Assembly (NCBI GenBank): GCA_964647855.1
Contig: CAZYJW010000003.1
Span: forward strand, 67,431 to 131,430
DNA length: 64,000 nucleotides
Origin: Candidatus Micrarchaeota archaeon
GTDB lineage: Archaea; Micrarchaeota; Micrarchaeia; Anstonellales; Bilamarchaeaceae
Direction: 5' to 3'
The translations under genes were made by a program, and so were the position numbers. This document shows positions 3,594 through 56,526 of this stretch, piece after piece. Below the pieces are notes generated by a model. The model did no database searches. It had not been told where the DNA came from and worked only from the letters and a program-made list of their open reading frames with translations. Within the stretch, counting starts at the first letter, position 1, and each line of letters begins with the position of its first letter.

Positions 3594-4772
3594 ATGATAA
3601 GGCTTGAGCTGGACCGGAAAAGGCGTTCAATCTCTGTGAAGGAGCCGGCCGACGTCTCCTCGCTGCAGAACGGCTTCTACGGCCAGATGAAACGGGGAAT
3701 CATTTACCTCACACCGGAGGAGGCACTCTACGTGATGGACATCCGCAACGGCAGGTGCTTCGACTCCGCCGGCAACGAATACGGCTTCAACGAGGTCGCC
3801 TCGCTCTTCCTCCGGAACAGGAAGCTCCTCGCGCGCTACCTCACCTACAAGGATTACCGCGACAAGGGGCTCATTCCCCGCCCGGCAGAAGAGGCCGAAG
3901 GCGGCTACGGGAGGGGCACGTCAGTGAAATACGCCGAGGGGAGCCTCTCGATGGACTCCTTCTCGTTCCAGGGGCTTTACTTCCCGAACGACCTCATCAC
4001 AATCGTTGACGACGAGAAGGCGGGGAAGGAGCTTTATGAAAGATACTGGCTCGGCCAGTTCGGGACGTACAAGGCCGCGCACCGGGGCAGGATTTCCAAG
4101 CTCGACGTCTACGAGACCATATTCCTGCTCAAGCACGGCGACCTCCACCTGAGGAACGCGAAGCTTGCAGATGTGGAGAAGGGGGCCCGAAAGCGCATCA
4201 GATTCTTCGCGGACATGTATCTAGTGTACGAGGACTGGCGCAAGCGGGGCTACGTGGTGAAGACGGGATTCAAGTTCGGGACGCATTTCCGCATCTATTT
4301 CCCGGGGGCGTCCCCGGTGCGGAGCGAGGACGAGTGGATGCATTCCAAGCACGTCATCCACGTGTTCCCGAGGAGGCACAAGCAGCTGATATCCGAATGG
4401 GCCCGCGCCATACGCGTCGCCCACAGCGTGAAGAAGACGTTCATACTCGCCATACCCGGCAAGAAGGCCGAGCCGCCCGCGGCCGGAGCGAAGAGGCGGA
4501 GGCTGGACTTCATCCTGTATCACCGGAAGAAGGGCGGGATAGATACCCCGAAGGACGGGACCCCGAAATACCTCATGTACTCCCTCACCGAGGACGAGTA
4601 CATCGGCGGGGAGGAGCTCGCGAAGGCCCTTGCCGAGTGCGGCGCCTCCGGCCTCGAGATGATGATGGCGATAGCCGACCGGGAGAGCAGCGTGACGTAT
4701 TACGTCATCAAGTCCATCGACCTCCCGGGAAGCGAGTACGAGTATTACGAGATAGAATGGCTGCAACCATAG
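3594..4772 (+). CDS. endA: tRNA-splicing endonuclease, epsilon2 (three-unit, ARMAN/Micrarchaeota) type
   Basis: GFKFGTHFRIY, H and K catalytic-region motifs; 392 aa; GTYK loop with Lys160 resembling the ARMAN-specific loop. Confidence 0.92.
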   Translation: MIRLELDRKRRSISVKEPADVSSLQNGFYGQMKRGIIYLTPEEALYVMDIRNGRCFDSAGNEYGFNEVASLFLRNRKLLARYLTYKDYRDKGLIPRPAEEAEGGYGRGTSVKYAEGSLSMDSFSFQGLYFPNDLITIVDDEKAGKELYERYWLGQFGTYKAAHRGRISKLDVYETIFLLKHGDLHLRNAKLADVEKGARKRIRFFADMYLVYEDWRKRGYVVKTGFKFGTHFRIYFPGASPVRSEDEWMHSKHVIHVFPRRHKQLISEWARAIRVAHSVKKTFILAIPGKKAEPPAAGAKRRRLDFILYHRKKGGIDTPKDGTPKYLMYSLTEDEYIGGEELAKALAECGASGLEMMMAIADRESSVTYYVIKSIDLPGSEYEYYEIEWLQP

Positions 4773-4897
4773 CAGCCATTCCCGCCAAATGCTTTCGCAT
4801 TTGACGGTCGAGTGGATTCAGCCGTGAATCCGCTTCAGGCAAAAAGAGGGCTTTTTGCTATAGAATGGCTCCAGAAATAGCCGTTTATGAGGTGTCA

Positions 4898-11531: not shown

Positions 11532-11743
11532 TCTCCCACCCGCATATATATGTGTGTAAAAGTGTTTATAATAGGGCTGGAAGGATGGAAAACGCGCCCG
11601 CTGCGAAAGCCGGCGCTTTCGCTTCCGTCCCGAATCCAATTGGCACGGCTGATTCCGCATGGGATAAAAAAAGGGGTTCGGGCCCGGGCATTGTGTCGTT
11701 CCGACACTTCGCCCCATGCCCTGCAGTGCGGCTTATGTATTCA

Positions 11744-11957
11744 CGGGCCCGGGGGGATTTGAACCCCCGACCTACAGCTGCCATCTTTTTGGGAAAAAGG
11801 TGGCTCCAAAAACCACCCCTTCGCCAAATAATAGAAGGCTGCCGCTCTATCCAAGCTTCTCTCCGCCGTTGATTTGGAACGGGCCAAAACGCGAAGCGTT
11901 CTCATCTACGTGTTTTGGGCCGCCTTTTCCCAAAAGGCGGAACTGAGCTACGAGCCC
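11744..11957 (-). tRNA. tRNA-Arg(TCT) with two introns (15/16: 11856-11942, 87 nt; 37/38: 11780-11831, 52 nt)
   Basis: Spliced GGGCTCG TA GCTC AGCTTGGATA GAGC G GCAGC CTTCTAA GCTGT AGGTC GGGGG TTCAAAT CCCCC CGGGCCC G folds to a cloverleaf; BHB-like junctions. Confidence 0.93.
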
Positions 11958-19692: not shown

Positions 19693-19827
19693 TGGGGTCA
19701 CGGAGATTTGAACTCCGACGTACAGGTTTCACGGCTCGCATGCCCCCGCACGGGCGGGGGCGGGATCTGGAGCCTGCCGCGCTACCAGGTTGCGTGGCCT
19801 CGGATGAGGCCCTTACGCCATAACCCC
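19693..19827 (-). tRNA. tRNA-Trp(CCA) with two introns (15/16: 19790-19812, 23 nt; about 37/38: 19728-19766, 39 nt)
   Basis: Spliced GGGGTTA TG GCGT AACCTGGTA GCGC G GCAGG CTCCAGA CCTGT ACGT CGGAG TTCAAAT CTCCG TGACCCC A; the D-loop intron has a perfect 4-bp GCGT/ACGC helix with 3-nt bulges. Confidence 0.9.
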
Positions 19828-19946
19828 GCTTCAATGCAATCAGGCTGCCGGCCTGAAAGCGTATTAATCTGCGCTGCCGCCTTTTTATAAATAACTGAAA
19901 GCCCCGGTTTCAATATCAATAAAAAGAAAGAGCGGGTTCAAGGCTT

Positions 19947-20777
19947 ATGGACGCCATAACGCTGCTTTCAGAAAGCGCCGCGCAGAGGAGGACCATCCTC
20001 TGCTTCGGGATAGACCCGGACATCGCCCGCATGGAGGCGGCAATAGGCAGGGGGAAGACCGCCGAGGAGACCATCGCCCCGTACTTCCACCCAATCGTGG
20101 AGAGGCTTCTGGACGAGAACGGGATATCGGCCCTGAAGCCGAACTACGCCTACTTCGCGCAGTACGGGTTCGAGGGGCTCTACGCCCTCGAGGACATCAT
20201 GCAGCACTATCGCGGCAAGGTGCCCATAATCCTGGACGGAAAGCGCGGGGACATAGGGAAAAGCAGCGAGGCCTACGCGCGGGAGGCATACGATTTCTGG
20301 GGCGCTGACGCAGTGACCGTCAGCCCTTATATGGGCGGGGACTCCGTGAAGCCGTTCTTGCGGGATGGGAAGATCGCGTACATGCTATGCCGGACGTCGA
20401 ACCCCGGGGCCATGGACTTCGAGGAGCTGGAAGCGAAAGCGAAGGGCGGCAAGGAAGGAAGGCGCGTATACGAACACGTTGCCGCGAAGGCGCTGGAGTG
20501 GAAGACCGGCCTTGTCGTTGGGGCGACAAGCGACTCCATCAGGAAGCTCGCGCAGGAGACGAAAAACTCGGTGCCGTTCCTGATTCCGGGCATCGGCGCG
20601 CAGGGCGGGGATTTGGGGATGGTGATGGACGCGATAAAGGCCAACCCGGCGATACACAGGATAAACGCCTCCTCATCGATAGCCTACGCATACCAGAAGG
20701 CGGGCGGAAAGCCCGCGGACGGCGCGCTCGCCGAGGCGCAGAGGCTCAATATGGCAATTAGGAAGGCGTTCAAGTAA
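19947..20777 (+). CDS. pyrF: Orotidine 5'-phosphate decarboxylase
   Basis: LCFGIDP, LKPNYAYF, ILDGKRGDIG, TVSPYMG.DS, RTSNPG, GLVVGAT, LIPGIGAQGG. Confidence 0.96.
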   Translation: MDAITLLSESAAQRRTILCFGIDPDIARMEAAIGRGKTAEETIAPYFHPIVERLLDENGISALKPNYAYFAQYGFEGLYALEDIMQHYRGKVPIILDGKRGDIGKSSEAYAREAYDFWGADAVTVSPYMGGDSVKPFLRDGKIAYMLCRTSNPGAMDFEELEAKAKGGKEGRRVYEHVAAKALEWKTGLVVGATSDSIRKLAQETKNSVPFLIPGIGAQGGDLGMVMDAIKANPAIHRINASSSIAYAYQKAGGKPADGALAEAQRLNMAIRKAFK

Positions 20778-25768: not shown

Positions 25769-26866
25769 ATGGACATCCTCGACCTGCAGGCGGCCAAGAA
25801 GGCGTTCGCGGAGTATTATTCGACGGCCGAGCTGCGGATACCCTCGATAGAGCGCAGGGAGTTCGGGGTAGGCAACCAGAAGAAGATTGACGCGAGGCAC
25901 CTGAACTTCGCGAACGCGCAGGAGTTCCGCAACTACCTCTGCAACAACACCCCGCTCTTCGTCTCCCACTCGACGGCGTATTATGATTATCCCGGAGCGA
26001 CCCCGATGGCGAAGAAGGGCTGGAGGGGCGCGGACCTGGTCTTCGACCTCGACATACATGCCGAGGGGAAATACGGCGCATACGCCCATCTCCCCCGCGT
26101 GCGGGAGGACGCCGCGCGCCTTGCCCGGGACTTCATCCTGAACGATTTCGGCATCAGAAGGGAGCACGTAGCGGTCGTGTTCTCCGGCAACCGCGGCTAC
26201 CACATCCACGTCAGGGACCCCGCGTTCCTGCCGCTCGGGAGCGAGGAGCGCCGCGAGCTCGTGGATTATATCATGGGCCAGGGGCTCGATTACACCCAGT
26301 TCTTCAGCCACGATGGAAAGCCGGCAAGGCTGATAGGCCCCCGCCCCGACGAGGGGGGCTACCGCGGCAGGTTCGCAAGGGGCGTCCTCGCGCTGCTTGG
26401 GAGCGACCCCGGCTCGCTCTCACGCCTTTTCACGAAGGAGAAGGAGCGCGGCTTCTTCATCAGCGGAATCAACGAGGGCAACTGGGGGAGGACGTCGCTT
26501 AAGTTCCCGGACATTATAGCCAGGCTGAAGCCGGTCGCAGCGACGCTGCCGGTGCGCTCGGTGGACACGGACGCCGGGGTCACGCAGGACCTGAGCAAGC
26601 TCATCCGCGTCCCTAATTCCATCCACGGCGACACGGGGATGGTGGCGAGGGTCGTGGACGACATATCGAAATTCGACCCCTGGCGCGACGCGGCGATGCC
26701 CGGGGGCGGGGAGATGCGGGTGAGGTTCGCGGAGGACGTCCCCGCCATCGAGATGGACGAGACCATGGGGCCGTTCGGCAAGGGCGACGAGAGGGCGCTC
26801 CCGCGCCCGAAGGCGATGTTCTTCGTCCTGAAGGGGAGCGCATCTTTTGCAAGAGCGGGGGATTAG
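25769..26866 (+). CDS. priS: DNA primase small subunit
   Basis: REFG, STAYY, GADLVFDLD, FSGNRGYHIH, D..VT.D...LIR.P.S.HG.TG. Confidence 0.96.
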   Translation: MDILDLQAAKKAFAEYYSTAELRIPSIERREFGVGNQKKIDARHLNFANAQEFRNYLCNNTPLFVSHSTAYYDYPGATPMAKKGWRGADLVFDLDIHAEGKYGAYAHLPRVREDAARLARDFILNDFGIRREHVAVVFSGNRGYHIHVRDPAFLPLGSEERRELVDYIMGQGLDYTQFFSHDGKPARLIGPRPDEGGYRGRFARGVLALLGSDPGSLSRLFTKEKERGFFISGINEGNWGRTSLKFPDIIARLKPVAATLPVRSVDTDAGVTQDLSKLIRVPNSIHGDTGMVARVVDDISKFDPWRDAAMPGGGEMRVRFAEDVPAIEMDETMGPFGKGDERALPRPKAMFFVLKGSASFARAGD

Positions 26867-27792
26867 AGCTTCGAAACCACTTCTTGGATATCTTCCCGGC
26901 CTATGCCAAACAGCGTAAGATACATGCGGGAGTATTCCGACTTTCCGCACGCCTTGAGTCTTTGCAGCAGTTCAAACTGGTATGGGCGTGATTCATCAGG
27001 AAACATCAGCGCGCCCATGGCCAGGTCGATGTCGGTTTTGGAAAATCCGTGGACCGCACGAAGCTGAAGTTCGAACAGCTTCGCCGCAAGCCCGTATGGG
27101 CGGGTGGTGCTTGTTTTTATCCTTTCCCGGAACATGATGCGCGATTCCCCGATCAGGCCGTGGCCGTCCGCCCCAATCATGGCTGCGAGCATCGCCAGGT
27201 ATTCTCTGATAAAGACAGGAAGAAGCCGATGATGCAGCCCCGCCATGCCCCATAGAGACATGTGAATCGCATGCTCCCGTTCGTGCGCCTTTGTTTCGGA
27301 AAGGTCGTTTCCTCTGGGGCTTATGAAAACCTGGAAGATATGGTCGTGATAGGAGGCGCCATTCATTATGCAGACTTTTGAGTCTTCATCCAGCACTGTA
27401 GAATATTTGAGGTCGCCTTCGAATTCCGTGGAACACCTCCTCTGCTCGAACCGAGCCAGTTCCCCTGCATATTTTCGGACTGGGACATATTGCAAGCCAT
27501 CATCGTAGGTGGTTTCATTGAGGCGTGCGACATGCGCCAGAGAGCTCCGTGGATCTATCAGGGGACCGATGCTGGTTTTGACAACGAAGGGCGGTTGGGG
27601 CGATGCGAACTGCCTTGCTGGGGGAGGAGGTGTGATCTCGATGCCGCAAAGCGCCTTCTTCAGAAAGGGTATCCGTGTCGGCACGCCTTCGGATGAGCGC
27701 CTTTCGGCCTGGCGCAGGGCGTTTTCCCGTAGTCTGCGCCTGCGCCCGCTGGCGCTGATGCCGAGGGCCGAGCAGATTAGCGGGTTGCGCAT
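26863..27792 (-). CDS. Orphan HExEH putative zinc metallopeptidase-like protein (paralog A)
   Basis: AHEREHAIH ... EYLAML; lower GC than flanks; paralog of 27838..28830. Confidence 0.55.
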   Translation of the reverse strand: MRNPLICSALGISASGRRRRLRENALRQAERRSSEGVPTRIPFLKKALCGIEITPPPPARQFASPQPPFVVKTSIGPLIDPRSSLAHVARLNETTYDDGLQYVPVRKYAGELARFEQRRCSTEFEGDLKYSTVLDEDSKVCIMNGASYHDHIFQVFISPRGNDLSETKAHEREHAIHMSLWGMAGLHHRLLPVFIREYLAMLAAMIGADGHGLIGESRIMFRERIKTSTTRPYGLAAKLFELQLRAVHGFSKTDIDLAMGALMFPDESRPYQFELLQRLKACGKSEYSRMYLTLFGIGREDIQEVVSKL

Positions 27793-27837
27793 TTGAATAA
27801 ATGTGGTTAGAAAAGGTTAAAAGTATTTCTTAAACGC

Positions 27838-28830
27838 TTAAAGGCTGAGCCTTGAAACGATATCGCGCAGATCGTCGAAGTGGACGCCGAACATGCGGTA
27901 GTAAGTGGCGTTGTATTCCGCAATCGCCGCATCGCGCATCCGGACGAACTGCTCCTGGAACGGGGAATCGAGCGCCTGGCCGTATTCCCGCCTCAGCTCC
28001 TCCCTGAACATCCAGGCGATGCCCATCGCGACGTCCTTCCTCTGCATGCCGTATCGTTCCGTGAGGCGCCCAATGAGCCCAAGCGCCGCCTTGTCGTGCG
28101 CGGGATGGCCGCCGCTTTCCGCGCCGGTCGGTTGCACATTGATGAATTCATTGCGCCAGGCAAGCAGCTGCGGCGCCTCTCCAAGGTCAATCAGCGTGCG
28201 GAGCATGGCGAGGTATTCCGTGGTTGCTGAGGGCAGGGCAAGGGACGGAAAGCCCGCCAGGTTCCAGAGCGAATGGTGCCGGGCGTGCTCAAGCTCATGC
28301 GTCATGACGTGCCGATGGGAATAGAAGTCCTGGTCCCTCCTGAGGAAGATGTTGTAGAGACATGTGAAGACCCCGCCTCCGCCAAGCAGAAGCCCGGCTT
28401 CATCACCCGTCACCCGGGCGACGCGGAGGTCGCCGATATAGGAAATGTCGCAGGGCGTGACGCGGTAGAGGATGCGGCCGTCCACGGGCTTCTCGACAGA
28501 TATCGCCTGCAGGCCCCTGCTGGAGTTGAATGAATTGAACCGGGCGATTTCGTCCCAGAAGGCCCTGAAGCGGAAATATGCCCGGAAATCCGCCCGCAGC
28601 CCGAAGACATGCCCTTCCCCGGCCGTCTTCTCAAGGGAGCGCGGCTCGGACCGGACCGACTCGCAGTTAGGGGTTGCCGCCCCGCAAAGCTCGCTCTTGA
28701 GGAATGGAATCCGCGTGCTGAGCCCCCCGAAGGCGTTTTTCGCGGCCCGCTCCTCCATTCTCGCATGGAGCCTCCTCTTCCTGGATGCTGCAGAGAGGCC
28801 GAGGGAAAGATAGAGCGGAGGCACTGCCAT
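27838..28830 (-). CDS. Orphan HExEH putative zinc metallopeptidase-like protein (paralog B)
   Basis: THELEHARH ... EYLAML; shares S(G/R)R(R/K)RRL, TRIPFLK..LCG and SLW..AG with paralog A. Confidence 0.55.
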   Translation of the reverse strand: MAVPPLYLSLGLSAASRKRRLHARMEERAAKNAFGGLSTRIPFLKSELCGAATPNCESVRSEPRSLEKTAGEGHVFGLRADFRAYFRFRAFWDEIARFNSFNSSRGLQAISVEKPVDGRILYRVTPCDISYIGDLRVARVTGDEAGLLLGGGGVFTCLYNIFLRRDQDFYSHRHVMTHELEHARHHSLWNLAGFPSLALPSATTEYLAMLRTLIDLGEAPQLLAWRNEFINVQPTGAESGGHPAHDKAALGLIGRLTERYGMQRKDVAMGIAWMFREELRREYGQALDSPFQEQFVRMRDAAIAEYNATYYRMFGVHFDDLRDIVSRLSL

Positions 28831-28836
28831 GGGAGA

Positions 28837-28864
28837 GATGTGTATGGAAAAGGTTAAAAGAGAT
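28837..28864 (-). promoter_or_regulatory. 28-bp promoter segment, copy 1 (ATCTCTTTTAACCTTTTCCATACACATC on minus strand)
   Basis: Exact duplicate at 29937-29964; both lie 6 bp upstream of an ATG; contains a TATA-like TTTTAA. Confidence 0.8.
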
Positions 28865-28898
28865 TATATGGCGGGAGTTCCAGTTCCAGATGAAAGGC

Positions 28899-29930
28899 TT
28901 ATTTTGTAGATTGGGATTGGATAGCAGAATGGAGCTCGGGGTTGATGGATGCAAGGGAGTCGAGAGCCCCGGCTTTGCCCCCCTGAGGCAGTTCCGCAAG
29001 GAACGAGAATGCCCTGAGGACGTCCTGGGGGCCGTATTCCATGTGCGAGACCTCCTCGCTATAGATTTCATAAATCTCCCCGCTGACATAGCACGGGTCG
29101 GCGCCCTTCGCGGCGACTTCCTGGGGAGTCTCCCGTTCCACACCGATAACCTCCGCGGGGCGGTCAACCACCTTGATGCTCCTTGGGGTCAAGGACGAGA
29201 TTGACCTCGCGAGGGCGGATGGAGGCGCGTCAGGATTCTTGAGGATTCGTTCCAGCACTGTCTGGTTCGCGCTCGTGGAGAGCGCTTCCAGTTCTTCCGC
29301 TGATAGCCCCCCACCAAGCTTCGAGCGATATGCCCCGCCTTTTGAAGTCGGGCGCTCAAGCGCATCGTAGGCTTCCATAGCTGGATTGGAGCCATCATAT
29401 GAAGCGGTGCCGCAAGCAAGGACCGCCCTAACCAAATGTTCCCGCGAGAGCTTTCCGCTAATTTCTTTGCGGAGGTCCGGGCCCGCGTTCACTGCCGAAT
29501 AAACGATTAGCAGGATTTCCGGAGAGCCGCTGCGGCCAATCCGCTCAAGTTGTTTAGGCGCGAGCGCACGTATGAAGTCCGACATCTCCTTCCCCGCGGA
29601 ACATCCGCCGGAGAGGGCCACGGCTTCGATGATGTCTTCGCTGCAAAAAAGCCGGAAAATGCCAGGATGCAGTCCGGGCGTGCTCAGCCTGATTGAGAGG
29701 GTGCGGACGGCTTGGCGCCGCACTGCCTCGCTGCCATTGCCAGAGAGCCTGGATAGCGTGCGCAGGTTTATATGGGGGTCCGCGGCTTTGCGGATGTCAT
29801 CGCCCAGGGGATTATGAATGCCAAAAAAGCGGCCGTGGCCGAAAAAGCGGCCCTTTTTTTCCCGGGGAGCGGATTCGCACGCTTCCGGAGATTTGATGCA
29901 TTGCCTTGGTGGAATGAATTCGCCGCTCAT
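28899..29930 (-). CDS. Orphan helical-repeat (HEAT/LRV-like) protein
   Basis: Repeating patterns such as VRRQAV..L and VLERILKNPDAP..AL; own duplicated promoter. Confidence 0.5.
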   Translation of the reverse strand: MSGEFIPPRQCIKSPEACESAPREKKGRFFGHGRFFGIHNPLGDDIRKAADPHINLRTLSRLSGNGSEAVRRQAVRTLSIRLSTPGLHPGIFRLFCSEDIIEAVALSGGCSAGKEMSDFIRALAPKQLERIGRSGSPEILLIVYSAVNAGPDLRKEISGKLSREHLVRAVLACGTASYDGSNPAMEAYDALERPTSKGGAYRSKLGGGLSAEELEALSTSANQTVLERILKNPDAPPSALARSISSLTPRSIKVVDRPAEVIGVERETPQEVAAKGADPCYVSGEIYEIYSEEVSHMEYGPQDVLRAFSFLAELPQGGKAGALDSLASINPELHSAIQSQSTK

Positions 29931-30563: not shown

Positions 30564-31754
30564 ATGGCTTCTTTTGACAAGATCCTTTCAGAGAAATCCA
30601 TCTTCCGGGACCTCTCGGTGCTCTCGCCGCATTACGTCCCCCGCGACCTGCCCTACAGGGAGGGCCAGATGCACGAGATAATGTCGGTGATTTCCCCGGC
30701 CCTGCGGGGGCAGAAGCCCAGGAACCTCATCATATACGGGACGACCGGCACCGGCAAGACATGCAGCACGAAGAGGGTGATGGAGGAGTTCGTGAAGGCC
30801 GCCGAAGCCGGCAGGGCGAGCATGCATTACGTCAACTGCAGGATATACAATTCCAGGTACAGGATACTCCAGAAGATTCTCAGGGGATACCTGCCCGAGC
30901 TCGAGAAGGCCGGATTCGGCCTGCCTTTCCTCTATGAGAAGCTCGTGGAGATTGCCACGCGGGGGGAGCAGATAGTCATCATACTCGATGAAATCGACAT
31001 GGTGAAGGACCTTGACGAGCTGGTATACACGCTCACGCGCTCGAACGACGAGATAACCAAGGGGGGCGTCAGCATCATCGGCATCTCCAACAAGCTCTCG
31101 TTCAAGGATTCCCTGGATCCCCGCAGCAAGAGCAGCCTGTATGAGACCGAGATGGTCTTCGAGCCCTACAGCGCCGAGCAGCTCAAGAGGATACTCGAGC
31201 AGAGGGCGGCCGAGGGCTTCAACGACGGCGTGGTGGAGCCCTCCGCGGTGAACCTCGCGGCCGCGATAACATCGCAGGAGAGCGGCGACGCGCGCTACGC
31301 TCTGAAGCTCCTGAACAAGGCCGGCGAGATGGCCCAGCAGGCCGGGAAGGCCAGGATAACGGATGAGGACGTCGAGGCCGCCTGCAGGAAGGTCGAGATA
31401 GACCTCGTCCTCGAGACGCTGAAAACCCTTCCCGAGATGCACCAGCTCGCCCTCTATGCGGTAGCAACGCTTACGTCGTCCGGAAGCAGGTACGCGCGCC
31501 TCGAGGGCGTGGACCCCGGCTTCCTTTTCTCCGGGGAGGTCTACGAGGAGTACGAGCGCGCCTGCAAAAGCGCGCGCAAGAGGCCGCGCAGCTCGCGATG
31601 GTTCAAGGAATACGTGAACGACCTCGAGACCCTCGGCCTCATCGTCACGACACCGAGCGGAAAGGGCGTGCGGGGGCAGACCACGCTGATAAAGCTCGGC
31701 CCGGGGCCGGAAAGCGTCCTTGGGATACTGAAGAAGAACCTTTTCGGGGCATAA
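30564..31754 (+). CDS. cdc6: Orc1/Cdc6 replication initiator
   Basis: LSPHYVP..LPYRE, GTTGTGKT, ILDEID, SGDARYAL.LL, C-terminal wHTH with G.RGQT. Confidence 0.96.
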   Translation: MASFDKILSEKSIFRDLSVLSPHYVPRDLPYREGQMHEIMSVISPALRGQKPRNLIIYGTTGTGKTCSTKRVMEEFVKAAEAGRASMHYVNCRIYNSRYRILQKILRGYLPELEKAGFGLPFLYEKLVEIATRGEQIVIILDEIDMVKDLDELVYTLTRSNDEITKGGVSIIGISNKLSFKDSLDPRSKSSLYETEMVFEPYSAEQLKRILEQRAAEGFNDGVVEPSAVNLAAAITSQESGDARYALKLLNKAGEMAQQAGKARITDEDVEAACRKVEIDLVLETLKTLPEMHQLALYAVATLTSSGSRYARLEGVDPGFLFSGEVYEEYERACKSARKRPRSSRWFKEYVNDLETLGLIVTTPSGKGVRGQTTLIKLGPGPESVLGILKKNLFGA

Positions 31755-34829: not shown

Positions 34830-34947
34830 GGGGCTTCCATGCCCTTCCAGGCATGTGCCCCCTAACTCCCGGTTTTTGGGCGCTTTTTCCTAAAAAGCGC
34901 AACGCTAGGGGGGCTTCCATGTTCGGCGAACCGAACACGCGCCCCCC
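34830..34947 (-). repeat. Two related GGGGC-NN-stem-GGAA-GCCCC hairpins downstream of tRNA-Ser
   Basis: 12-bp direct repeat ggggcttccatg at 34830 and 34910; each copy folds into a helix, a 2x4 internal loop and a hairpin. Confidence 0.55.
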
Positions 34948-34961
34948 TTCGCGCATGCGAG

Positions 34962-35096
34962 CGCTAGGGGGGAGATTTGAACTCCCGGACGCTTGCGCGC
35001 AACAGGTTTCCGACCGCCTTTGGCACCCCGTTTTGGGGCGCCTTTTGCTAAAAGGCGCTAGCAACCTGCCGCCCTACCAGTCTAGGCGACCCCAGC
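34962..35096 (-). tRNA. tRNA-Ser(GCT) with a 37/38 intron (35008-35058, 51 nt)
   Basis: GCTGGGG/CCCTAGC acceptor, GCAGG TTGCTAA CCTGT anticodon arm, long variable arm GCGC-GCAA-GCGT, GGGAG TTCAAAT CTCCC. Confidence 0.93.
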
Positions 35097-35229
35097 ATGA
35101 TAACATCTGTCGAACCTTAGCTGGGGGGCTTTGGACGGAATGCCGTCCAAATTGACCCCAGCGTGAAAACTTATGTCGAACAACAGCTGGGGTATGATGG
35201 CCGAAACGTCGGCCAGCAGCGACCCCAGC
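35097..35229 (-). ncRNA. Two tandem acceptor-stem-mimic hairpin cassettes with 22-nt linkers, upstream of tRNA-Ser
   Basis: Units 35186-35229 and 35120-35162 start GCTGGGGTC, end CCCCAGC+T and enclose 7-bp and 9-bp hairpins; linkers 35163-35184 and 35097-35118; expression not shown. Confidence 0.6.
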
Positions 35230-35324
35230 GGAAAATTTCCTTAGAACCAACTTCGGGCAAATTTTCATCAAACTTCAGCCGGTTTGACTAAGCATGAATG
35301 GAAAGGGGGTTATAATAAGTTTCC

Positions 35325-54684: not shown

Positions 54685-54779
54685 CCGAAAACGGGTGGGG
54701 CCGTTTATCATTTTATTCTCCGCATGTCCGCCTTCCCCTCAGGTAGCTTGATAAACGCTCCAGAGCAAGCAATAATCAC

Positions 54780-54852
54780 GCAGGAGCAGCGAGGTCATTG
54801 AACTGCGGTTCAATATTCGCGACTCCCGCTGGTGTGAAACGGCTGTGTTCAC
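54780..54852 (+). ncRNA. Acceptor-stem-mimic hairpin cassette with 22-nt linker, upstream of tRNA-Leu
   Basis: GCAGGAG...CTCCCGC+T (54780-54830) with inner GCGA/TCGC and ATTGAAC/GTTCAAT stems; linker 54831-54852; expression not shown. Confidence 0.6.
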
Positions 54853-55039
54853 GCAGGAGTAGCGAAGCGGTCAAACGCGGGGGACTTAAGGGGCCTTTTG
54901 GCTTCGGGTGAAATCCGGGCAAAACGCCCGCGAAAAGCCCTGAGGCGAGGCATAGGCCGCGTTATTTTTCCCTTTCCGAACGCGGTTCGGGAAATCCTCT
55001 GGCCCAGCGCCTTCGGAGGTTCGAATCCTCCCTCCTGCA
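54853..55039 (+). tRNA. tRNA-Leu(TAA) with a 37/38 intron (54891-54993, 103 nt)
   Basis: GCAGGAG/CTCCTGC acceptor, GGGGA CTTAAGA TCCTC anticodon arm, long variable arm, GGAGG TTCGAAT CCTCC. Confidence 0.92.
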
Positions 55040-55097
55040 AAAACTTTTTTGGAAAAAGTTTTATCAAAAACCCGCAGTAAACGAAGCAGGTGAAGGT

Positions 55098-55565
55098 ATG
55101 GAACGCATTTACCGAATGCTTTACCCGATGAGGGCCTGCCTGATAACCAGCAGGCACAACGGAAAGGAGAATGCGATGTCCGCGACGTGGGTCTTCCCTC
55201 TCTCCATGGACCCGCCGCTCTTCGGAGTGTCAATCTCGCCCAAGCGCCACAGCTTCCAATTGATACGCGATAGCGGGGCCTTCGGCATAAACATCCCTTC
55301 GGAGGACATGGAGGATGCGGTGAAGCTGTGCGGCACGAAAAGCGGCAGGGACTCCGACAAATTCGCGGAGGCGAAGCTTACGAAGGAGGAGGGAGCCGGG
55401 CGCGTACCGCTGATACGCGAATGCCTCGCCAGCATAGAATGCGAAATCGAGCGTGAAATCGTGCTCGGCGACCACAGCGTCTTCGTGGGCAGGGCAATCA
55501 AGGTCGTGAGGAGGAAGGAGGGGAAGGGGCTCTATCAGAGCGCGGAGGGATTCGTCCGGGTGTGA
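55098..55565 (+). CDS. Flavin reductase-like FMN-binding protein
   Basis: NAMSATW..PLS.DPP, G.KSGRD.DKF, EC...IEC, GDH.VFVG. Confidence 0.92.
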   Translation: MERIYRMLYPMRACLITSRHNGKENAMSATWVFPLSMDPPLFGVSISPKRHSFQLIRDSGAFGINIPSEDMEDAVKLCGTKSGRDSDKFAEAKLTKEEGAGRVPLIRECLASIECEIEREIVLGDHSVFVGRAIKVVRRKEGKGLYQSAEGFVRV

Positions 55566-55581
55566 AGCCCGCGCATGGCTT

Positions 55582-56526
55582 TCAGAGGACGCGTGCGCGC
55601 TTCCCGTCGAAATGCACCGTCTCCTCGTAGCGCATGCCGTAGTTTTTCAGGTAGAACGACGGCTCTATCGCGAGGGTCGCGCCCTTGAGGGAATCGTCGG
55701 ATTTCGGCCCGAGGCGCGGGAACTCGTGGATGTCCAGCCCGACGCCGTGCCCTATCGCATGCGGCATCTTCGGGAAGCCCGCCTTCGAGATGAGCTCGTC
55801 GGCCAGCTTGGCGGCATCCTTGCCGGAATCGAGGCCGGGCAGCGCGTCGGCAAGGAAGAGGCAGATGTCCTGCAGGCGCTCGTACTGCGCCTTTTTCCTA
55901 AGGTCGCCGTCACGTATGAAGCATCTCGTCATATCCGCGCAATAATGCCGGTAGCGGACGCCGTAATCCACGAGCACGAGGCCGCCGAGGCGCCCCGCGC
56001 CGGCGCGGTAATGCGGGAATGCCGTGCTCCGGCCGCTGGCGACTATGGGCTCGAACGCGGGCTCGAGGCCCCTCTCGAGCGTCATCATCAGCAGCTGCTT
56101 ATGGACGTCCTGCTCGGTACGGGCGGCATCCCAGTCTATCGAGCCTATTATTTCCCGGGTCTCCCTCACCGCCCGCCGGACGCAGGCGGCCTCTGCGGGG
56201 CTTTTCACCGCCCGCGCCTCGAGGAGCTCCTGCGAATGGTCCTCCAGCCTGCAGAGCTTGCGGATTTTTTCCGCCATACGCGCGCTCATCGAGGCGGCGT
56301 CGTAGAGAACCTTCCGGCCCCGGATGAGAGGCGCGATTGCCTTCATGGCGTCGCCGTAAGCGACGACACGCCCCCGGAACGACCTGCGGGCGAGCGCCTC
56401 GTTCATGCGGGGCACGGCAAGCGCCCGCCGTTTGCCGTCCGAGATGAAGAACGAGTGGTCGATGTCCACGCCGGATTGATGGAAGAAGTTCGCATCGAAT
56501 TTCTCGCCGCGATAGAGCAGGAGCAT
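55582..56526 (-). CDS. pepQ: Xaa-Pro aminopeptidase/dipeptidase (M24B)
   Basis: PHY, VLVDYG......ADMTR, HAIGHGVGLDIHE.P, IEP, RYEE. Confidence 0.92.
   Translation of the reverse strand: MLLLYRGEKFDANFFHQSGVDIDHSFFISDGKRRALAVPRMNEALARRSFRGRVVAYGDAMKAIAPLIRGRKVLYDAASMSARMAEKIRKLCRLEDHSQELLEARAVKSPAEAACVRRAVRETREIIGSIDWDAARTEQDVHKQLLMMTLERGLEPAFEPIVASGRSTAFPHYRAGAGRLGGLVLVDYGVRYRHYCADMTRCFIRDGDLRKKAQYERLQDICLFLADALPGLDSGKDAAKLADELISKAGFPKMPHAIGHGVGLDIHEFPRLGPKSDDSLKGATLAIEPSFYLKNYGMRYEETVHFDGKRARVL

Follow-up and report, generated by a model that had tools for sequence, protein, structure and literature searches.

The window analyzed here, a stretch of 64,000 nucleotides (nt) from contig CAZYJW010000003.1 of a Candidatus Micrarchaeota archaeon, carries four tRNA genes. 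Directly upstream of two of them, tRNA-Leu(UAA) and tRNA-Ser(GCU), lies the element that is the subject of this report: a hairpin whose outer arms are a direct and an inverted copy of the start of the adjacent tRNA gene, followed by a linker of 22 nt that runs up to the first base of the tRNA (G1). Hairpin and linker together are referred to as the cassette. The tRNA-Leu locus is organized as follows.

54742-54756, plus strand: promoter-like box GGTAGCTTGATAAAC, with a TATA-like part TTGATAAA that ends 24 nt before the first G of the hairpin
54780-54829, plus strand: hairpin ("mimic") of 50 nt, gcaggagcagcgaggtcattgaactgcggttcaatattcgcgactcccgc, read from the sequence
54831-54852, plus strand: 22-nt linker ggtgtgaaacggctgtgttcac (GGTGTGAAACGGCTGTGTTCAC), preceded by a single T at 54830 and lying directly before tRNA G1 at 54853
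54853-55039, plus strand: tRNA-Leu(UAA) with discriminator A73 and an intron of ~103 nt at roughly 54891-54993 (Rfam tRNA, 41.9 bits)

The identity of the tRNA as Leu(UAA) follows from A73, the anticodon loop CUUAAGA, and an intron-less orthologue in a relative (locus L086; L numbers denote loci and contigs of relatives), against which the limits of the intron were set. The 5′ arm of the hairpin is a direct copy of nt 1–21 of tRNA-Leu, with 18 matches and a 3-nt gap, and the 3′ arm is an imperfect inverted copy (...TTCGCGACTCCCGC). The arms enclose an inner hairpin, ATTGAAC-tgcg-GTTCAAT, at 54797-54814, and the whole structure folds with -21 kcal/mol (z = -3.6). The T and the linker are part of a conserved leader motif, C-T-AAGGTG.AACAG.TGTT.TCAC. 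An earlier description made from the letters alone (the sequence-only reading), in which a 50-nt hairpin, a T, and a 22-nt linker precede tRNA-Leu(UAA), is borne out by the sequence and by the Rfam tRNA match.

A related arrangement is found on the other strand at tRNA-Ser(GCU), with the following features.

35259-35276, minus strand: promoter-like box GAAGTTTGATGAAAATTT ahead of the Ser array, with CTAAGGAAATTTTCC between it and hairpin 1; recognized from the sequence and its likeness to relatives' boxes
35186-35229, minus strand: Ser hairpin 1, GCTGGGGTCGC..TGGCCGAcgttTCGGCCA..CCCCAGC, from sequence and fold
35163-35185, minus strand: T and Ser linker 1, GTTGTTCGACATAAGTTTTCAC, from sequence and linker pattern
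35120-35162, minus strand: Ser hairpin 2, GCTGGGGTC..TTTGGACGGcattCCGTCCAAA..CCCCAGC, from sequence and fold
35097-35119, minus strand: T and Ser linker 2, AAGGTTCGACAGATGTTATCAT, from sequence and linker pattern
34962-35096, minus strand: tRNA-Ser(GCU) with discriminator G73 and an intron of ~51 nt, mislabeled as Pro by ARAGORN
34902-34954, minus strand: mirror-image 3′ unit downstream of tRNA-Ser (hairpin z = -4.7)

The Ser array (35229-35097, minus strand) thus consists of two hairpin-plus-22-nt units, with hairpin z scores of -4.7 and -6.4. The 3′ arm of the mirror-image unit directly repeats 11 nt of the tRNA-Ser 3′ end, CCCCCCTAGCG (34913-34903), and the unit's segment CATGGAAGCCCCCC(T)TAGCG is kept in L097.

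The closest genomic relatives by aIF2-gamma are Candidatus Micrarchaeota metagenome-assembled genomes, with 64–81% identity. Orthologous loci were reached via aIF2-gamma synteny for tRNA-Ser, via PAC2 synteny for tRNA-Leu, and via one metagenome scan with a linker pattern derived from the class II leader motif and hence biased towards class II tRNAs; the L098 contig stops short of its tRNA. The cassette is present at five Leu(UAA) loci (the window, L081, L082, L090, and L091) with one further variant (L084), at three Ser(GCU) loci (the window; L001, with three units; L097, with one displaced unit) with one further variant (L068), and at one Ser(UGA) locus (L087), where the tRNA is intron-less and the linker reads AAGGTGAAACAACTGTTTTCAC. 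All nine full cassettes and both variants lie at Ser or Leu tRNA genes, a count to be read with the biased pattern and the small sample in mind. The metagenome scan gave five matches, of which three are real and all three abut a tRNA, and the ~0.8 Mb of fetched loci contained one stray match to the linker motif. In the genomes that bear the cassette, whose proteins are 64–90% identical, the architecture and a near-identical linker recur at Ser-GCU, Ser-UGA, and Leu-UAA. The cassette is a real, recurrent element, and the earlier claim that it is not a chance duplication stands. No Rfam family covering it was found in the window or in the relatives' loci, and no description of such cassettes was found in literature searches.

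The linkers of several tRNA-Leu genes in relatives are given below.

L081 Leu linker: AAGGTGAAACATCTGTTTTCAC
L082 Leu linker: AAGGTGAAACAGCTGTTTTCAC, with close variants in other relatives
L090 Leu linker: AAGGTGAAACAGCTGTTATCAC
L091 Leu linker: AAGGTGCGACAGATGTTTTCAC

The relatives' Leu linkers are identical to Ser linker 2 of the window at 16–19 of 22 positions. A linker consensus common to the Leu unit and both Ser units had been proposed, and the pattern GTNNNACNNNNGTNNTCAY indeed matches three times in 64 kb, only at the three cassette sites, against 0.07 matches expected. Since this pattern was derived from the same three sites, the count is circular on its own; the agreement between the relatives' Leu linkers and the Ser linker of the window answers the question of chance independently. 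The proposed constant length of 22 nt holds for 10 of 14 units and fails in unit 2 of L001 (21 nt), in L084 (34 nt), in L068 (14 nt), and in L097 (~73 nt), so that the spacer ranges from 14 to ~73 nt.

Similar sequences are also found where no hairpin precedes. The T after the stem belongs to the C-T-AAGG motif, which is present also without a preceding hairpin; a CTAAGG...TTTTC motif stands before the first hairpin as well (CTAAGGAAATTTTCC in the window Ser version), and the native leaders of cassette-less tRNAs are linker-like, as in L086 (CTAAGtatatgGTGgGAACtcTTTT, with CTAAG...TCTTTT), L083 (AAAAGTGATCATACTTGT), and L092 (CTTAAGGAAAATTTTCT), each directly followed by the G of the tRNA. Because the motif precedes both the first hairpin and cassette-less tRNAs, the linker is a paralogue of the native leader.

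Pairing inside the linker, which the sequence-only reading had suggested, did not hold up: both Ser linkers of the window have a minimum free energy (MFE) of 0, the Leu linker has z = -0.2, and variable positions change among GAA, GCG, and TCG without compensation. A small linker hairpin is accordingly ruled out for Ser and weak for Leu. Two other candidate roles were rejected. The linker is not a promoter for leaderless transcription of the tRNA, as positions -31 to -24 are GC-rich arm sequence with no TATA box, and a C/D-box sRNA in the GTTTGATGA box is not supported, as the boxes are not conserved (TGATCA and TGATAGA in relatives). Within the window, no duplex between the linker and a trans target stood out except with the linker's own antisense, and in IMG/VR viral contigs the linker motif gave two chance matches in coding sequence and nothing else.

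The 5′ arm copies 8 nt of the tRNA in L081, L082, and L001, 9–11 nt in the window Ser units and L087, and 14–15 nt in L084 and L090. The arms track the adjacent tRNA (GCAGGGG/CCCCTGC in L091, GCCGAGGTC in L068), as had been claimed. The part of the claim that equated the stem with the acceptor stem is not strictly true: the inverted arm of L084 and L068 pairs with tRNA nt 6–14 or 4–9 and not with acceptor bases. The name "acceptor-stem mimic" is therefore too narrow, since the copy reaches into the D arm and these two arms are shifted. As a background rate, 0.8% of random window positions have upstream a 7-nt copy of the start plus its complement. The arms enclose one to three perfect palindromes whose loops measure 3–6 nt, and the three inner palindromes of L091 give a cloverleaf-like outline. 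Three palindrome families can be distinguished: TTGAAC..GTTCAA (window Leu, L090, and the Ser locus of L068), TGGCCGR-nGTT-YCGGCCA (window Ser, L001, L097, and the Leu locus of L091), and GGAC..GTCC (L081, L082, L084, and window Ser unit 2). Members of the second family retain pairing in 96.9% of cells and include two compensatory pairs. Covariation across loci, which had been put forward as a check, was thus seen in the inner stems and is absent from the variable positions of the linker.

The outer stem of 7–12 bp, with one base before the spacer, is consistent with a tRNA-like minihelix that would act as processing punctuation for RNase P or tRNase Z, whose cuts would release small RNAs and the 22-nt linker. 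Alternatively, the cassette could be an intron removed by the tRNA splicing endonuclease EndA, which would make the upstream copy the true 5′ exon. The window encodes such an endonuclease (3594-4772, plus strand; 392 aa; N-terminal and catalytic domains PF02778 and PF01974), and every tRNA gene in the window has introns. The size of the enzyme matches the three-unit epsilon-2 type of ARMAN-2, which cleaves relaxed bulge-helix-bulge motifs (PMC3239211). The remaining evidence makes both versions of this explanation scarcely credible. First, the hairpins have no T-loop or cloverleaf and tRNA models give them no score: RF00005 and tRNA-like searches returned none even at E <= 10, and intron-allowing ARAGORN calls only the tRNAs themselves. 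Beyond the 5′ copy, the hairpin interiors show no significant tRNA homology, as 59–500 of 500 shuffles score at least as well; this excludes a decayed tandem tRNA, and a minimal tRNA is excluded by a tetraloop in place of the 7-nt anticodon loop and by the lack of a model match. Second, the "discriminator" T is the T of CTAAGG. Third, predicted folds have no 3-nt bulges, and a self-complementary 4-mer, needed for an in-register cut inside the repeat, is absent from GCAGGAGTAGCGAAG. A strict bulge-helix-bulge scan found no in-register motif at the cassette borders, although the same scan also missed the known introns and so failed its positive control. Fourth, the upstream copy at the window Leu locus has C8 and a 3-nt gap in its D loop, whereas U8 is universal in tRNA; with no such 4-mer and with these two defects, excision would not restore a functional tRNA, and splicing of the cassette by EndA is improbable, though less so at relaxed motifs of the kind that a three-unit EndA accepts.

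Two known systems are close to this explanation. In haloarchaea, a tRNA-like structure upstream of 5S rRNA is cut by tRNase Z, and there too an acceptor-stem-like helix lies just upstream of another RNA gene in the same transcript; the cassette differs in having no T arm or T loop, a stem that extends or shifts into the D arm, and no sign of cleavage at its borders. The split and permuted tRNA genes of Nanoarchaeum, Caldivirga, and Thermofilum share with it a DPANN or intron-rich lineage, a splicing endonuclease of broad specificity, pairing outside the mature tRNA, and, in permuted genes, the order of 3′ acceptor-like strand, spacer, and 5′ acceptor strand. However, the tRNA downstream of the cassette is complete and collinear, and no bulge-helix-bulge was found at the borders by the scan that also missed known introns.

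Comparison of close relatives shows that the cassette is gained or lost as a precise segment. L081 differs from L092 by a 62-nt segment placed exactly at G1 and bounded by GCAGGAGT repeats, with ~110 nt of near-identical sequence upstream, and L084 differs from L093 by a precise 77-nt indel at G1 between near-identical flanks; both were confirmed by alignment. The same filled and empty pattern was read by eye for L082 and L085. The inserted segment is 43–130 nt long, has no open reading frame, and is bounded by direct repeats of the tRNA start of 7, 8, 9, 11, 14, or 15 nt, depending on the locus. Copy number varies from one (Leu) to two (window Ser) and three (L001, in which units 1 and 3 differ at 3 of 67 positions). 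The cassette is lacking at 6 of 12 Leu loci (L092, L085, L093, L094, L086, and L083) and at 5 of 9 Ser(GCU) loci (L002–L006), and the relatives without it include ones with 84–87% identical neighboring proteins. Because so many Ser and Leu orthologues in close relatives lack it, the cassette is not a required class II processing signal. The sequence-only reading, which proposed a selected class II element, had itself named absence from other Ser and Leu tRNAs as the finding that would refute it, and this was found in part.

We favor, with a probability of about 0.4, the reading that the cassette is an expansion of the 5′ flank of Ser and Leu tRNA genes that is specific to the lineage, dispensable, born by duplication, and tolerated in the leader. 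It would have arisen by local duplication at the DNA level, possibly through template switching or unequal exchange at a heavily transcribed gene. Each unit comprises (i) a direct copy of the first 7–21 bases of the tRNA gene; (ii) one or more short perfect palindromes from a few common families; (iii) an inverted copy of the first part, so that parts (i) to (iii) make up one long hairpin; and (iv) a copy of the conserved leader sequence normally found directly before G1 (C-T-AAGG...GTTTTCAC). The unit is bounded by direct repeats, namely the copy and the real tRNA start, and recombination or slippage between them would add units, giving arrays of two or three, or delete units precisely, giving the empty alleles. 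The cassette would be transcribed as a 5′-terminal hairpin followed by a single-stranded leader of ~22 nt and would be removed in one piece by the 5′ cut at G1, presumably by RNase P; neither an RNase P RNA gene nor an RNase P protein gene was found within the 64-kb window by Rfam and Pfam scans. The inverted arm would pair with the spare 5′ strand and thus would not compete for the 3′ acceptor strand of the tRNA.

The positions of promoter-like boxes are consistent with this course. In the genome of the window, TTTATA or TTTTAA boxes lie about 24–27 nt before gene starts, and the Leu box GGTAGCTTGATAAAC closely resembles GGTAGCTTTTTATAC, which stands 26 nt before the start of gene 5249. A box of the Leu type is kept upstream of tRNA-Leu in L081, L082, L085, L090, and L092, and the Ser-type box GAAGTTTGATGAAAATTT is also found in L081, L092, and L097. 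In filled alleles the box lies 22–29 nt before the first G of the hairpin (window Leu and Ser, L001, L081, L084, L090, and L091), and in the empty alleles L092, L093, and L094 the same boxes lie 23–29 nt before tRNA G1. The boxes would act as promoters, and a cassette downstream of its box would form the 5′ end of the primary transcript, to be cut off at G1. With respect to known systems, the cassette would thereby resemble structured pre-tRNA 5′ leaders and external transcribed spacers: it lies between a promoter-like box and G1, would be cut in one piece, and has a U-rich, single-stranded end whose -1 position is a pyrimidine. To our knowledge, however, known pre-tRNA leaders do not contain a direct plus an inverted copy of their own 5′ end, are not tandem, and are not a module common to different tRNA genes.

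Precise indels flanked by direct repeats are also what one would expect of a small, non-autonomous mobile element that inserts, or of a module that spreads by recombination. Such an element would target the first 8–15 bp of class II tRNA genes, duplicate its target, and carry a complementary segment, with the linker as its conserved right end. The right end is in fact a conserved stretch of 24 nt with an imperfect palindrome, GTGAAAC-AGCT-GTTTTCAC; palindrome families are common to different tRNA types and distant genomes, the stems are palindromes of a DNA type (see below), and TCAC-like tetranucleotides stand before units and at unit ends. The length of the repeats, 7 to 15 nt or more, is nevertheless unlike a fixed target-site duplication. 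There is no conserved left end, and terminal inverted repeats are absent, since neither end of the inserted segment is the inverted repeat of the other. No transposase or integrase turned up in Pfam scans covering about 50 window proteins, and the viral contigs gave chance matches only. No dispersed copies were seen: the three units of the window and the three real metagenome matches all lie at tRNAs, with the one stray match in the fetched loci. Furthermore, we know of no transposition chemistry that makes an inverted copy of its target. Taken together, we consider a mobile insertion unlikely. Compared to REP/BIME, PATE, and MITE hairpins, the cassette shares short perfect palindromes of a DNA type, tandem units, and a conserved end, but it differs in the absence of dispersed copies, terminal inverted repeats, and a transposase, and in outer arms that are copied from the neighboring gene.

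A related proposal is that the cassette is the scar of site-specific integration, in which an element with an attachment site at the 5′ end of a tRNA brought its own leader (in L097, its own promoter) and then decayed. Partial tRNA copies on both sides of tRNA genes, the promoter-like box inside the L097 spacer, the variable genes downstream of tRNA-Leu, and the tRNA bodies that are swapped relative to their flanks would fit. The repeats are short for this purpose (7–15 nt), the scans of window proteins revealed neither an integrase nor other genes of such an element within or beside the cassettes, and the inverted copy and the perfect inner palindromes are left unexplained; the ~20-nt spacing between inverted arms is too large for the core site of a recombinase. 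We therefore hold a scar to be very unlikely. The archaeal att repeats of integrative plasmids and viruses likewise place direct repeats of a tRNA terminus around an insert that is present or absent, as seen here together with variable genes beside tRNA-Leu. The cassette departs from them in its 7–15-nt repeats, in the targeting of the 5′ end, in the inverted copy and palindromes, and in the lack of nearby integrase or element genes.

The tRNA-Leu locus varies in other ways as well. Between the tRNA and a conserved Peptidase_M24/DUF4349/PIN_9 block, gene content differs in almost every relative (L082–L086, L092–L094; window 55040-55600), and two body types of tRNA-Leu(UAA), TAGCGAAGCGG and TGGCAGAGCCCGG, each occur in combination with both upstream and both downstream flanks. 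This locus is apparently a hotspot of recombination. In L085 (2057-2160), the stretch from PAC2 to the tRNA-Leu promoter contains a 25-nt unit, gagttctttcgatctccctcaattt, in four tandem copies, and L093 has one copy.

The claim that the element is confined to Ser and Leu tRNAs is tentative. The window tRNA-Arg and tRNA-Trp lack a full cassette, which with its conserved linker was seen only at class II genes, but small direct-plus-inverted copies are present 5′ of tRNA-Trp and 3′ of tRNA-Arg, so that copies of tRNA ends as such are not confined to class II. Downstream of tRNA-Arg (about 11679-11721, minus strand), a hairpin has a 10-nt copy of the tRNA 3′ end as its closing 3′ arm, and a T-rich terminator follows both this hairpin and that of tRNA-Ser (34902-34954). 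At tRNA-Trp, GTTATGGCGT, a 10-nt copy of nt 4–13, lies 133 nt upstream (about 19945-19962, minus strand) in a TTATGG-cgt-CCATAA hairpin, a configuration with a background rate of 0.3%; this hairpin overlaps the predicted start of a divergent OMP decarboxylase gene. Three non-class-II tRNAs from cassette-bearing genomes were inspected. L090 contains a further class II-like tRNA (2130-2211; 39 bits) that has no cassette and a TATA-like box 26 nt upstream; it combines a Leu-like D arm and a long variable arm with a GCC anticodon and a poorly paired acceptor stem. The association of the full cassette with class II, resting on the biased pattern and a small sample, is suggestive.

The pairing within the stems bears on whether the cassette acts as RNA. 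G·U pairs are few on either strand, with 7 of 268 in the sense reading and 10 of 264 in the antisense reading. A·C accounts for several of the sense-strand mismatches, and folding the antisense strand gives a structure at least as stable as the sense fold, often a more stable one. Because pairing is Watson–Crick on both strands with no G·U bias, the stems look like DNA-type palindromes and not like strand-specific RNA helices. The repeats also permit a strand-swapped fold, in which the upstream copy pairs with the 3′ strand of the tRNA and the inverted arm with the real 5′ strand. In thermodynamic modeling of eight loci, the native and swapped folds differ in energy by -3.0 to +1.9 kcal/mol, but near-equal energies follow from the repeat architecture itself, and multiloop terms bias the comparison. 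An equilibrium check of "sequestering" was discarded: the swapped fold was preferred with or without the 3′ arm, which is probably an artefact of multiloop parameters.

These folds are nevertheless the starting point for a functional explanation, namely that the cassette is a leader element of class II pre-tRNAs in which four strands (the 5′-strand copy with its complement, and the genuine 5′ and 3′ strands of the tRNA) would adopt two exclusive pairings, with a protein on the linker or the inner hairpin setting the rate of 5′ maturation. Besides the small energy difference between folds, this would account for a linker whose sequence is conserved while its structure is not, as expected of a protein-binding site, for the occurrence of every full cassette at Ser or Leu, for inner stems that keep their pairing by compensatory changes, and for the tracking of the tRNA by both arms in L091. 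Against it, the cassette is missing from roughly half of the orthologues in close relatives, the equal energies are automatic and depend on unreliable multiloop terms, no G·U signature marks the sense strand, the L097 hairpin lies upstream of a promoter-like box, and the class II restriction rests on a biased pattern. On balance, such a role is improbable in our view. A bolder form, in which the cassette would be dedicated to class II tRNAs as a programmable cis-regulatory RNA switch or as a target-templated insertion module, seems to us quite unlikely. In this form, a "lid" would copy the tRNA 5′ strand, an "anti-acceptor" arm would pair with either the lid or the real 5′ strand, and the 22-nt platform would bind a factor that chooses the pairing, thereby gating the 5′ maturation of both tRNA-Ser and tRNA-Leu; the module could move between tRNA genes, with its arms re-tailored to the new target.

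Several observations weigh against the favored reading of a tolerated, duplication-born expansion. First, the three inner-palindrome families are common to Ser and Leu loci and to distant genomes, for which independent local duplications are insufficient. Second, across tRNA types and genomes the linker (16–21 of 22 positions) is far more conserved than the interior of the hairpin, which passive junk would not be; either a constraint on the leader or a recent spread is needed. Third, modeling fails to show that the hairpin protects the true acceptor stem, as the folds are near-isoenergetic. Fourth, the L097 hairpin lies upstream of box GAAGTTTGATGAAAATTT, which stands between hairpin and tRNA, so that this hairpin may be outside the transcript altogether; in the window Ser locus, unlike in L097, the box is upstream of the whole array. 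Finally, we know of no simple mutational route that gives a direct and an inverted target copy together, repeatedly. Linker conservation and the sharing of palindromes are left unexplained by a tolerated expansion and keep a functional or mobile reading alive.

If the expansion is indeed of this ordinary kind, the edges of tRNA genes in reduced DPANN genomes accumulate palindromic duplications that the processing machinery tolerates. If linker and hairpin instead act in RNA, the cassette would be the first leader element common to serine and leucine tRNAs and tailored to their own 5′ strand, and would offer a direct handle on the control of 5′ maturation in archaea with unusual tRNA genes. Under either reading, filled and empty alleles in close relatives constitute a natural experiment. 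The results also carry a warning for annotation, as standard tools miss or mis-call hairpins, intron-rich tRNAs, and partial tRNA copies. Default ARAGORN finds none of the four window tRNAs because each of the genes carries introns, Rfam finds Leu alone, and intron-allowing ARAGORN mislabels three.

The four intron-bearing tRNA genes lie at 11744-11957 (minus), 19693-19827 (minus), 34962-35096 (minus), and 54853-55039 (plus). Arg(UCU) (c11957-11744) and Trp(CCA) (c19827-19693) have two introns each, of which one lies within the D arm or D loop. An intron motif, NNNCCTTTTnnnAAAAGGNNN followed by CCCAAAAC, is common to the Ser intron (35038-35058) and the D-loop intron of Arg (11920-11940). An extra copy of this motif lies outside any tRNA, downstream of tRNA-Ser (34868-34900, minus strand), and is nearly identical to the Ser intron of L001; a AAAACTTTTTtggAAAAAGTTTT hairpin similar to the motif follows tRNA-Leu at 55040-55062.

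The remainder of the window contains archaeal housekeeping genes, including those for aIF2-gamma, S6e, a PAC2 protein, a proteasome subunit, Cdc6, FttA, and the three-unit tRNA splicing endonuclease. Three adjacent paralogous genes without a Pfam match (26863-29930, minus strand, and 30564-31754, plus strand) have a common upstream sequence, ctcttttaaccttttccatacacatc; since they adjoin a Cdc6/Orc1 gene, a replication origin may be nearby. At 4786-4858 (plus strand), the 90-nt spacer that separates the endonuclease gene from a PPIase gene contains three perfect hairpins in a row.

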